From assembly GCA_964570825.1 (NCBI GenBank), contig CAZMZJ010000002.1:17070-81069 (forward strand): a stretch of 64,000 nt of DNA, given 5' to 3'. The position numbers and the translations under genes are program-made. Shown here in pieces: positions 25,228 through 27,434 of the stretch. Every line of letters begins with the position of its first letter. Positions within the stretch are counted from its first letter, which is position 1. This DNA is from an uncultured Lachnospiraceae bacterium. GTDB lineage: Bacteria; Bacillota; Clostridia; Oscillospirales; CAG-272. The notes under the pieces were generated by a model. That model saw only the letters and a list, made by a program, of their open reading frames with translations. It did not search any database and was not told the origin of the DNA.

Positions 25228-25280
25228 ACATACATATGTTAAATGTAAATTAGTGATTTATTTGAGAGGTATTGTACATA

Positions 25281-26222
25281 ATGGAAATAGAAAAACAACG
25301 TCAGCTGATGGCCGAAGTCGCTTTGTATTATTATGAAAAAAAATACACTCAGCAGAAGGTGGCGGATATTCTCGGTCTGTCGAGGCAGACCGTTTCAAAG
25401 CTGCTGATTGAAGCCGAAAACGAAGGCATAGTTGAAATAAAAATCCACAATCCCGAAACAGAGCGCCGGGCTCTTGCCTGTGAAATCTGCCAGAAGTTCG
25501 GGATAAAAGGAGCTTCTGTCTGCGGCATCAGCAGACCGGATGAGGAGATGACGCGTCTTCTTATTGTGCGGCACGCTGCGGAATATCTCCTTCCGATCAT
25601 CGAAAAAGGAGGACTAAATATCGCTTTTTCCTGGGGAAGAACTCTTCTGGCATTTGTAAACGAACTCCCCTCGATCCGAACCTCCGGGAATGTGATTTTC
25701 CCGCTGCTCGGAGCGACAGACTGGGAAGCGGCATATTTCACTCCGAACGAACTGGCGCGCTCGCTTGCCGAAAAAACCGGATCGGCGATAAAATACGCAT
25801 GGTTCCCGTATTATCCCGAGAACAAGCGCGAATGCGAATTTTTCAAAACGACCACATACTATAATAATATGCAGAATCTTTGGAAGAACATCGATCTGGC
25901 AATTGTCGGCATCGGAAACAGCAAGACGGCGGAGAATCTTCTGAGCTCGGCATACCCGCATGAGCTTATCGGCGCCGCAAACTCGGGCGTGGTGGGCGAC
26001 ATAGCGACGCACTTCTATAAAATAAACGGAGAGGTTATCCCCGCAGACGGCGAGACGCTCTGCGCGTCGGCGGAAAACCTAAGGTCTGCAAAGCAGGTGG
26101 TTGCTATAGCGGGCGGACCCGACAAGGTAAAAGCAATAGCCGGCGCCCTGCGCACAGGCATAGTCACTCATCTTATCACCGACGAGATAACGGCGCGCGG
26201 AGTGCTGAAGCTTGCAAAATGA
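25281..26222 (+). CDS. SorC/DeoR-type sugar-binding transcriptional regulator
   Basis: N-terminal HTH (YTQQKVADILGLSRQTVSKLLIEAENEGIV) plus a C-terminal sugar-binding domain with AIVGIGNS. ATG 25281 is preferred over TTG 25272 because of the GAGAGG position. Confidence 0.8.
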   Translation: MEIEKQRQLMAEVALYYYEKKYTQQKVADILGLSRQTVSKLLIEAENEGIVEIKIHNPETERRALACEICQKFGIKGASVCGISRPDEEMTRLLIVRHAAEYLLPIIEKGGLNIAFSWGRTLLAFVNELPSIRTSGNVIFPLLGATDWEAAYFTPNELARSLAEKTGSAIKYAWFPYYPENKRECEFFKTTTYYNNMQNLWKNIDLAIVGIGNSKTAENLLSSAYPHELIGAANSGVVGDIATHFYKINGEVIPADGETLCASAENLRSAKQVVAIAGGPDKVKAIAGALRTGIVTHLITDEITARGVLKLAK

Positions 26223-26255: not shown

Positions 26256-26295
26256 AAAAAAGTCTTGAAAACACCATTGTTTTCAAGACTTTTCC
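26256..26295. terminator. Bidirectional terminator between the SorC regulator and GNAT genes
   Basis: 13-bp perfect stem AGTCTTGAAAACA / TGTTTTCAAGACT, loop CCAT, T/A-rich flanks on both sides. Confidence 0.65.
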
Positions 26296-26375
26296 GCTTT
26301 TATCACTGCCAATGTACGCAAATTTTGATAAAATTCACGAAAGGTTTCGTGAGAGAGTTGCGTTTTGTTTTGTTG

Positions 26376-26906
26376 TTATTGCATAACTTTTTCAAATCTA
26401 AACATTTCGGAAGGCCCTTCTTCCGGCATATCCGTTTCGTGCGGGTCAGGGTTAAACTCCCCGAAAAATTCAACGGCATGGAAACCGCATTTGTTGATGT
26501 AGAAATGAATGTTCCGCTTCTCAAAATACGGCGTGCAGGTTTCCCAAACCTTTGTATCGGGGTATAGGCGTTCAACCTCCTGCCAAGCGGCAAACCCGAT
26601 GCCTTTACTATGGACGTCTGGAGAAACAAACAACAAATCAAGATGATTGTGTTGTGTTTCTTCGTTGATTTGCAGCACAAGACCGCCGACAATTTTGTTG
26701 TCCTCACGGATGCGGTAGGCAACCCCCTCGTCAATGCTTTTTTCGATTGTGCTTTTGGAAATGATTTCGCCGCCCTCTTCAAAATGGTCGTCGCGAAGTC
26801 CGAATTCTTCCATTGCACCGAACTTAAAAGCGTACTGATTATCGAGAATGAATTGCTCTCTGTCATCTGCAGCAAGTGGAGTAAGAGTGATTTTTGGTGT
26901 GTTCAT
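26376..26906 (-). CDS. GNAT-family N-acetyltransferase
   Basis: Acetyl-CoA motif region LLFVSPDVHSKGIGFAAW. About 176 aa. GGAGG 5 nt upstream of ATG 26906. Confidence 0.75.
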   Translation of the reverse strand: MNTPKITLTPLAADDREQFILDNQYAFKFGAMEEFGLRDDHFEEGGEIISKSTIEKSIDEGVAYRIREDNKIVGGLVLQINEETQHNHLDLLFVSPDVHSKGIGFAAWQEVERLYPDTKVWETCTPYFEKRNIHFYINKCGFHAVEFFGEFNPDPHETDMPEEGPSEMFRFEKVMQ

Positions 26907-26917
26907 TAAAACCTCCA

Positions 26918-26965
26918 TAAAAACAACTCGGCAACAAAAAGCATACCTACGCTGATTGTTCCGAG
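26918..26965 (-). terminator. Intrinsic terminator inside the GNAT 5' leader
   Basis: Stem CUCGGAACAA / UUGUU(G)CCGAG with one bulge, 18-nt loop, followed by UUGUUUUUA directly before the RBS. Confidence 0.5.
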
Positions 26966-27069
26966 CTCACTCGACATCTTATCCGACAGGCGGCCTGCAA
27001 AGCAATGCTTTACGATCCCCTACGCTACGGCGTACTGTCCTCCGATGACCGATATTTGATTGTAATAAT

Positions 27070-27098
27070 AGTATAGCACAGTTTTTCACAAAAAGCAA
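27070..27098 (-). promoter_or_regulatory. Promoter of the GNAT leader transcript
   Basis: TTGCTT - 17 nt - TATACT on the minus strand, immediately downstream of three direct repeats. Confidence 0.45.
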
Positions 27099-27105
27099 TA
27101 AATAA

Positions 27106-27164
27106 GTCAATCTTTTCACGATAGGTGCTATCTTTTCACGAAAGGTCAATCTTTTCACGATAGG
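27106..27164 (-). repeat. Three direct repeats, period 19-20 bp, core CCT(A/T)TCGTGAAAAGA (minus-strand reading)
   Basis: The plus strand reads TCTTTTCACGATAGG / TCTTTTCACGAAAGG / TCTTTTCACGATAGG at 27111, 27131 and 27150. Confidence 0.8.
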
Positions 27165-27301
27165 TCGCAACGAAAACAGCTCTGCTACATTTTTGAGAAA
27201 AGCAGTATATATAAAGCTTTCGGTTCAACTGCCGGGCAGATATTCGAGAGTGGCGGAAGAACCCGAAAACAGTAAAGACGCCCTTATTTCAAGGGTATTT
27301 G

Positions 27302-27357
27302 GCATAAAACAAGTACGCAGTCGGTGACAACATTTTATCACTGACTGCGTACTTGTT
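27302..27357 (-). terminator. Terminator downstream of tRNA-Pro
   Basis: 15-bp stem AACAAGTACGCAGTC / GACTGCGTACTTGTT plus an inner GTGA/TCAC helix, followed by a T-run on the minus strand. Confidence 0.7.
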
Positions 27358-27434
27358 TGGTCGGAGTGACAAGATTTGAACTTGCGACCTCTTGGTCCCG
27401 AACCAAGCGCTCTACCAATCTGAGCCACACCCCG
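27358..27434 (-). tRNA. tRNA-Pro (anticodon CGG), CCA encoded
   Basis: Minus strand reads CGGGGTGTGGCTCAGATTGGTAGAGCGCTTGGTTCGGGACCAAGAGGTCGCAAGTTCAAATCTTGTCACTCCGACCA. Cloverleaf checked by hand: 7-bp acceptor, anticodon stem CTTGG/CCAAG, loop TTCGGGA, T-loop TTCAAAT. Confidence 0.95.

Follow-up and report, generated by a model that had tools for sequence, protein, structure and literature searches.

A conserved leader RNA before acetyltransferase and drug-efflux genes in gut and rumen bacteria: a candidate class of transcriptional ON riboswitch

Introduction

What decides whether transcription enters an acetyltransferase gene that lies behind a structured leader and an intrinsic terminator? 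The question is raised by a stretch of 64,000 nucleotides from an uncultured Lachnospiraceae bacterium (contig CAZMZJ010000002.1; hereafter the window, whose numbering is used for all coordinates), in which a GNAT N-acetyltransferase gene on the minus strand is arranged in this way. The original prediction had described the leader as a candidate riboswitch or attenuator that fits no known class, a description that was borne out in this study by conservation, covariation, a terminator competing with the conserved fold and the lack of any Rfam match. It had also proposed how the switch might be thrown, by a single UACGC choosing between two AGCGUAGG boxes or by translation of a short upstream ORF (uORF), and here our analyses led elsewhere.

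Results

Layout of the locus

All features that had been listed for this leader were present in the window. Read along the minus strand, their order is promoter, leader of about 155 nt, terminator, GGAGG and GNAT gene; further upstream on the same strand lie a tRNA-Pro(CGG) gene (27434-27358), followed by a long hairpin, and three direct repeats of about 20 bp (27165-27106). The -35-like hexamer TTGCTT (27098-27093), read from the sequence, is separated by a spacer of 17 nt from TATACT (27075-27070), which together with TG at 27078-27077 makes up an extended -10 box, TGcTATACT (27078-27070). Because TTGCTT agrees with the -35 consensus at only three of six positions, it was missing from the promoter consensus scan. 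In the relatives, boxes of the TG-n-TATAAT type stand equally far from helix P1 of the leader, some 22-25 nt 5' of it; the -10 box has kept its place. At the other end, the Shine-Dalgarno sequence GGAGG (26916-26912) stands 5 nt before the ATG of the GNAT coding sequence (26906-26376, 176 aa, beginning MNTPK). The encoded protein matched Pfam Acetyltransf_1 (7.2e-11), and the alignment of homologues favoured the start at 26906 over an in-frame ATG at 26918.

Conservation and covariation

We examined 80 loci with GNAT orthologues of 58-86% protein identity from rumen and gut Clostridia MAGs. The leader core (27049-26961) was matched by BLASTN in 48 of these 80 loci at 75-95% identity, and it was up to 95% identical where the GNAT proteins themselves were only 60-75% identical; since the leader is better conserved than the protein, its conservation goes beyond chance. 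The covariance model (CM) R1 placed a single match in every one of 53 of the 80 loci, in each case immediately 5' of the GNAT gene, and a lone copy of the RNA in the 64-kb window when run with filters off.

Covariation among orthologous leaders had been named as a check on the original prediction, and the leader proved to be both conserved and covarying. In alignment A1, which comprised 34 distinct leaders and in which six helices were seen, 97.5% of cells were paired and 14 of 28 pairs showed compensatory changes, a result reached by none of 500 shuffles, while slid controls gave 30-39% pairing. The independent metagenome set A3 behaved similarly, with 95.8% of cells paired and compensatory changes at 21 of 28 pairs (387 cells; 0/500 shuffles). 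Helices P1, P2, P2a and P4 as well as the optional P3 were backed by covariation, and the column pairs with the highest mutual information were exactly the annotated helices. The leader is thus almost certainly a conserved, structured cis-regulatory RNA. A scan of the alignment for pseudoknot or tertiary covariation returned helix pairs only; in the same scan, position 3 of the P2a loop correlated with position 3 of the P4 loop, which is confounded by lineage.

Anatomy of the conserved domain

The conserved, aptamer-like domain as a whole spans about 87 nt (27047-26961, minus strand, as are all its parts) and scored 109.5 bits with CM R1 (E = 1.6e-23). Its first helix, P1, is formed by a 5' strand CAUC (27047-27044) and a 3' strand GAUG (26978-26975), the AUG of which is the start of the uORF; CAUC/GAUG is replaced by CACC/GGUG in 13 of 34 sequences of A1 and in 30 of 82 of the metagenome set. 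Between P1 and P2 lie two unpaired blocks. J1/2, GGAG (27043-27040), is near-invariant and was found in 47 of 48 protein-found leaders, a set that is unbiased for the RNA, and J2/1, GGAUAA in the window (26984-26979), reads (G/A)GAU(A/U)A in nearly all of the protein-found leaders. In the metagenome set both blocks formed part of the search pattern, which accounts for some of their conservation there, so that the protein-derived set alone is unbiased in this respect. P2 pairs GACAG (27039-27035) with CUGUC (26989-26985) and is supported by covariation, with compensatory changes at four of five pairs in the metagenome set.

Within P2 stands the hairpin P2a, UACGC-CGUA-GCGUA (27034-27021), which includes the first AGCGUAGG box. 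This hairpin had been proposed from the window and is real: all five of its pairs show compensatory changes, they are the top mutual-information pairs of the alignment, and the loop is kept as CGYA. The first AGCGUAGG box corresponds to the P2a 3' arm plus the junction GG. The P3 arm with its junction blocks GGGGAUC...AGGCCGC (27020-26990) is specific to a subtype and dispensable; its stem covaries, and the entire arm is missing in 'mini' and Bacteroidota variants. Finally, hairpin P4, CGAG-UGAG-CUCG (26973-26962), was paired in 100% of cases, with changes from A:U to G:C and from G:C to A:U and a loop of the form UGMG, and its 3' arm is at the same time the 5' arm of the terminator.

The minimum free energy structure predicted for the window domain as a single sequence was the covariation-supported structure. 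By single-sequence folding, the aptamer domain was no stabler than its shuffles (z = -0.46), and the fold of the whole leader was mildly better than shuffles (z = -2.1). By inspection, the internal loop did not fit the standard consensus of a K-turn or a loop-E.

Terminator and competing folds

The intrinsic terminator (26967-26919, minus strand) has a stem from 26967 to 26925 and a U-run extending to 26919. Its arms are GCUCGGAACAA and UUGUUG-CCGAG, followed by UUGUUUUU, and its predicted energy is -20 kcal/mol (z = -3.66); its apical hairpin, AGCGU-AGGU-AUGCU, is variable and carries the second AGCGUAGG box. Since P4 amounts to only -3.9 kcal/mol against the -20 kcal/mol of the terminator in the window, read-through would need some added stabilisation of the conserved fold.

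Overlap between the terminator hairpin and the conserved fold was found in 132 of 154 unique copies, when the hairpin was required to end at most 3 nt before the U-run. In 103 of the 154 the terminator takes up the P4 3' arm. In another 29, mostly of the Bacteroidota type, it takes up the P2 3' strand, J2/1 and the P1 3' strand, with P4 as its apical hairpin, and 20 copies had no clear overlapping terminator by these simple criteria. The competitors of the terminator are therefore P4 (CGAG-UGAG-CUCG) or, in other members, the J2/1-P1 strand, and the two wirings follow one logic, in which the conserved fold excludes the terminator. As folding of the domain excludes termination, an ON switch is predicted, and the element very probably acts through this competition.

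Distribution and downstream genes

A gene-blind scan of metagenome contigs with the degenerate pattern CGGAGG...GATWAGRTG...RRGTGMGCYYG yielded at least 120 loci, and 120 of the 120 listed were confirmed by CM R1. Of two matches on viral contigs, one (L202) was genuine and the other (L201) a chance match. The element always lies directly 5' of a gene, on the same strand. Among 172 instances, the downstream gene belongs to the window's GNAT family in 84, a count inflated by the choice of the first 80 loci, to the MatE efflux pumps in 52 and to ABC exporters in 6; about 40% of the gene-blind matches sit before MatE pumps. The element is thus not specific to GNAT genes. Further downstream genes encode an Acetyltransf_3 GNAT and another Acetyltransf_1 GNAT, so that GNATs of three unrelated families follow the element, as well as CitMHS, CmpB-like, MscS and Cytidylate_kin2 proteins. 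These genes are non-homologous yet functionally coherent, and by inspection no conserved partner or regulator gene near the element was evident among them.

The element measures 65-95 nt and occurs in several forms: the three-way junction of the window type, forms with a different P3, the 'mini' form that lacks P3 and the junction blocks, and a further variant before MatE genes that is accompanied by Bacteroidota-type TAnnTTTG promoter boxes and has no Shine-Dalgarno sequence. In the Clostridia, members have -10 boxes of the sigma-70 type together with Shine-Dalgarno sequences. Altogether, 86 of 149 copies have a promoter-like -10 or TAnnTTTG box just upstream. In look-ups of exact-sequence clusters, the MatE proteins of the Bacteroidota type were named Bacteroides sp. 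CAG:927, Muribaculaceae and Bacteroidaceae, and one regulated Firmicutes MatE cluster, of 5215 members, was named Ruminococcus. The RNA class is therefore one of gut and rumen Clostridia and Bacteroidota, where it precedes acetyltransferase and drug-efflux genes.

Comparison with known RNA classes

A search of Rfam 15, which the original prediction had also called for, returned no match for the leader even at E<=10, either in a 2-kb region or with the 176 nt alone, and ten other members of the class had none at E<=5. At the Rfam 15 gathering thresholds the whole window contained only the tRNA-Pro and an unrelated ZTP riboswitch. In the open-access literature no description of the motif was found under GNAT and MATE riboswitch motifs, sequence strings or the Weinberg and Eckert screens. 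Judged by the open-access literature and Rfam 15, the class is probably undescribed so far.

Several candidates were tried and rejected. The spermidine riboswitch, a SAM-I variant, has a different architecture, and there was no SAM-I match; the family covariance models of the T-box and the other Rfam riboswitch classes remained unmatched. ANTAR and RAT antitermination was set aside by inspection, as the loops are the tetraloops CGYA and UGMG and no regulator gene is conserved. Leader-peptide attenuation was rejected because no short ORF has a conserved frame and peptide. Membership in guanidine-IV or Gd4v was rejected as well, given the lack of a model or profile match, of the kissing loops and of the corresponding gene associations.

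Downstream GNAT proteins

The annotation of the window GNAT in Pfam and NCBIfam is generic only, and PDB sequence searches with this protein and two other associated GNATs returned only uncharacterised or weakly related enzymes. Its AF2 model had a pLDDT of 67.8, with the C-terminal third unreliable, and in Foldseek this model matched many GNATs with similar scores (TM 0.40-0.54). The first of them was 8osp, a guanidine-IV-controlled GNAT of L. curiae, which at TM 0.54 was not distinct from the others, and aminoglycoside and spermidine acetyltransferases came next. As a hint to the substrate, this ranking of a predicted structure is suggestive at most.

Discussion

Our analyses suggest that the leader belongs to an uncatalogued class of cis-regulatory RNA that works as a transcriptional ON riboswitch, with a rough probability of 0.7; the polarity is deduced from the architecture, and the binding of a ligand is presumed. 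The element joins a covarying domain, a sense position in the 5' UTR, a mutually exclusive platform and non-homologous genes of one theme, features by which riboswitches are recognised. That it is a true small-molecule riboswitch of ON polarity therefore seems likely, although both binding and polarity are what we infer from such features.

The proposed mechanism would run as follows. Transcription would start a few nucleotides past the TGcTATACT box, and the first 90 nt or so would fold into the conserved domain, in which P1 leads through the asymmetric internal loop (GGAG / GGAUAA) to P2, which would open into a junction with the CGUA-capped P2a and the optional arm P3. The small hairpin P4 would form immediately 3' of P1, and its 3' arm, GCUCGG, would double as the 5' arm of the far stronger terminator. 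By default the terminator would displace P4, and transcription would end before the GNAT gene. In the ligand-bound domain, the P1-P4 stack would be locked, the terminator could not nucleate, and RNA polymerase would reach the ribosome-binding site and the GNAT gene. Induction of a modifying enzyme or an exporter fits this ON polarity.

A known switch with a comparable platform is the pbuE adenine riboswitch, a member of the purine class that switches on an efflux pump. Its aptamer is a three-way junction, the P1 3' strand is common to aptamer and terminator, and binding of the ligand prevents termination. This arrangement would correspond to the platform of the second, Bacteroidota type of the new class; the two are similar neither in sequence nor by Rfam, and in the new class P3 is dispensable and an extra hairpin, P4, belongs to the domain. 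The leader-peptide attenuators of inducible resistance genes likewise place a 5' leader and a terminator before a drug-modifying or export gene, but the new class has no conserved leader peptide, and its conservation and covariation lie at the RNA level.

Functionally, the new class comes closest to the guanidine-IV (mepA) riboswitch and to Gd4v, an orphan variant of it described by Lenkeit et al. (2022); both control GNAT and MATE genes (PMC9788692). Gd4v is enriched in gut metagenomes, occurs in several phyla and is a predicted ON switch, more than half of whose copies precede a transaminase gene (PMC9788692). In both, a hairpin loop of the CGCCGGA type kisses a terminator loop, UUAGGCC or CGUAGGUA (PMC9788692). 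The new class resembles guanidine-IV in its transcriptional ON logic, in the competition of a conserved RNA with a terminator, in its MATE and GNAT genes and in its occurrence in Firmicutes; with Gd4v it shares the state of a gut-enriched orphan in several phyla, the GNAT and MATE genes and the predicted ON polarity. It is very improbable, all the same, that the leader is a divergent member of one of these known classes or of the SAM-I/spermidine variants. This explanation would account for the GNAT and MATE genes, the gut habitat and an ON logic by antitermination like that of Gd4v (PMC9788692), but it is opposed by the lack of a match to any Rfam 15 family, guanidine-I to -IV and the SAM classes included, in the searches with the leader and the ten further members. 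In place of a kissing loop with the terminator loop, the new class has variable terminator loops, and the published blocks CGCCGGA, UUAGGCC and CGUAGGUA are absent. Its own conserved parts, the internal loop GGAG/GGAUWA, the CGYA-capped hairpin and the UGMG-capped hairpin, are not those of guanidine-IV, and it differs from the published Gd4v constructs in sequence and architecture. A nhmmer profile of the class alignment, which detects divergent members of the class, found nothing at E<=100 when run against five published sequences of Gd4v and guanidine-IV. In addition, among 172 instances no gene for SugE, as expected for guanidine-IV, or for the PRK07324 transaminase linked to Gd4v was found.

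The mode of control proposed at the outset, a choice between the two AGCGUAGG boxes and/or ribosome-mediated attenuation through translation of the 23-codon uORF, hardly deserves more credit. The window itself invites it: the octamer AGCGTAGG does occur twice (27026-27019 and 26953-26946), and the ORF beginning with the ATG at 26977 is present, with a stop that overlaps the GNAT start (TAATG). Among the relatives, however, the second box is absent and thus specific to the window, which leaves a single UACGC nothing to choose between; an aptamer 8-mer of any sequence recurred downstream in 9 of 150 unique copies, about as often as expected by chance (an estimate of roughly 0.07 per leader). The ORF, too, is unconserved. 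The start codon is part of the P1 3' strand and covaries with the P1 partner, being ATG in 92 copies and GTG in 58; the ORF can be as short as 3 codons or as long as 50 or more; and in 'mini' variants a 1-nt insertion within a conserved block (GUCCGAG) shifts its frame. Similarity of the peptide is limited to the first six residues or so, which are similar because the P4 nucleotides dictate them. As frame, length and start all vary, what is conserved is the RNA. Furthermore, the uORF has no Shine-Dalgarno sequence at a usable distance, and the Bacteroidota members have no comparable ORF.

Two further explanations accept the competition with the terminator and differ from ours in what drives it or in which direction. 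According to one of them, which we consider unlikely, what the element binds is a macromolecule, be it a protein such as an antiterminator, a tRNA or a component of the ribosome, by which P4 or P1 is stabilised in its competition with the terminator. Protein-dependent antitermination, too, is typically marked by conserved hairpins whose sequence overlaps a terminator, and no tertiary covariation was detected. Against this, the element is spread over two phyla and precedes many unrelated genes, with no regulator gene recurring in its neighbourhood, and the conserved tetraloops contrast with the hexaloops of ANTAR targets. Features of the T-box and of RAT are absent, Rfam gave no match, and an element of 65-95 nt with near-invariant nucleotides in an internal loop resembles a typical aptamer. 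The other, less likely still, is an OFF riboswitch, in which the bound ligand would weaken P4 or promote the terminator, with expression of the genes in its absence. In the Firmicutes type P1 and P4 do not overlap, so the formation of P1 alone does not fix the fate of P4, and this would leave room for such a design. In the 29 copies of the second type, however, the terminator directly consumes the P2 3' strand, J2/1 and the P1 3' strand, so that a folded aptamer must prevent termination; P4 belongs to the conserved domain and has an invariant loop, and a regulon of exporters and modifying enzymes suits induction by a substrate.

Taking the ON riboswitch as the preferred reading, its regulon of acetyltransferases and exporters indicates that the ligand is probably toxic and is dealt with by acetylation or export. 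Our leading guess is a compound from the gut or rumen that is cationic or an amine, for example a polyamine or biogenic amine; a ligand of this kind is put forward tentatively. It is quite possible that this new two-phylum class senses a toxic metabolite or xenobiotic of the gut and rumen and induces both its acetylation, through GNATs, and its export, through MATE and ABC proteins. If so, the RNA would offer a handle on the compound and, for thousands of GNAT and MATE genes that are still unannotated, on their substrates; both classic routes of detoxification, modification and efflux, would be under the element in dominant anaerobes of gut and rumen. Orphan riboswitch classes, which can point to unknown biochemistry, are rare, and this one is abundant (at least 120 loci). 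The identity of the ligand would assign substrates to the large 'GNAT family N-acetyltransferase' and 'MATE efflux' families, of which the window's GNAT family alone comprises at least 7987 clusters at 90% identity; it could expose a stress compound of relevance to the gut, and it would add a new aptamer fold. The P4-arm and P1-strand platforms, moreover, couple one aptamer to termination in two ways, which makes them a natural experiment on such wiring. Carriers of the class include Ruminococcus bromii-like and Muribaculaceae genomes.

Distribution and Copy Number of the Motif

In several genomes the conserved RNA motif was found more than once. Two tandem pairs of MatE genes, which encode efflux pumps, were identified in which each gene is preceded by its own motif copy, one on the metagenomic locus L153 (7597-7676 and 11112-11191) and the other on L188 (6205-6284 and 9722-9801). 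Similarly, two MAGs, RGIG7980 (L024 and L039) and RGIG2681 (L019 and L062), each carry two motif-GNAT paralogues. These tandem MatE genes and GNAT paralogues therefore point to small regulons within single genomes. The motif also extends to a 13-kb IMG/VR contig classed as viral (L202), on which a genuine copy at 1158-1249 scored 84.9 bits and precedes a MatE-like ORF; the match on the other viral contig, L201, was rejected as a chance pattern match. In addition, the short contig L128 carries a ZTP riboswitch (55.7 bits) at 455-537, which precedes the contig's motif copy by approximately 500 nt.

Absent and truncated leaders were observed as well. The GNAT orthologue of L001 (UBA1734), 86% identical and among the closest recovered from reference genomes, has no leader; acquisition or loss of the switch is thus not tied to the enzyme. 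This orthologue lies about 80 nt downstream of a gene that, judging from the translation of its 3' end, looks like an acetyltransferase-type gene. Two further loci, L031 (2867-2952) and L041 (97-182), carry truncated leaders that retain only J2/1, the 3' strand of P1, P4 and the terminator, the 5' half having been swapped for unrelated sequence; such leaders should be constitutively terminating or decaying.

Correlation Between the P2a and P4 Loops

In A3, the alignment of metagenome copies, position 3 of the P2a loop (CGUA or CGCA) correlated with position 3 of the P4 loop (UGAG or UGCG). The base combinations at column 28 (window 27027) and column 128 (window 26967) were U/A in 38, C/C in 28 and U/C in 12 copies. 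This correlation could reflect a tertiary contact between the two loops, or it could be a lineage effect only, since a position in P2 correlates too.

Flanks of the GNAT Gene

Directly upstream of the GNAT promoter, a tRNA-Pro(CGG) gene is followed by a hairpin with 24-bp arms (window 27307-27434). Inspection by eye revealed a tRNA-like sequence and hairpin at the equivalent place upstream of the leader in three relatives (L002, L007 and L019), suggesting that tRNA genes tend to precede the leader-GNAT unit. Three tandem direct repeats of about 20 bp, spaced 19-20 bp apart in the order ACCTATCGTGAAAAGATTGAC, ACCTTTCGTGAAAAGATAGCA, ACCTATCGTGAAAAGATTGAC (window 27106-27165), end 8 bp before the -35 element. 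The exact 12-mer TCGTGAAAAGAT has no further occurrence in the 64 kb outside this array, and 10 relatives lack the direct repeats ahead of their leaders. A half copy of the repeat is located within the palindrome TCACGAAACCTTTCGTGA (window 26335-26352), just past the GNAT stop codon. The array looks like a set of putative transcription-factor binding sites, which would add an extra layer of control over the RNA switch.

At window 26904-26918, the mechanical ORF call placed the GNAT start at ATG 26918 (MEVLMNTPK), overlapping the RBS; homologue alignment and GGAGG spacing disfavour this codon and favour ATG 26906 (MNTPK). Beyond the gene, a perfect inverted repeat with 16-bp arms, AAAAGTCTTGAAAACA and TGTTTTCAAGACTTTT (window 26258-26293), is probably a bidirectional terminator; it separates GNAT from the convergent ORF 25272-26222, which, judged by eye from its sequence, we take to be SorC-like.
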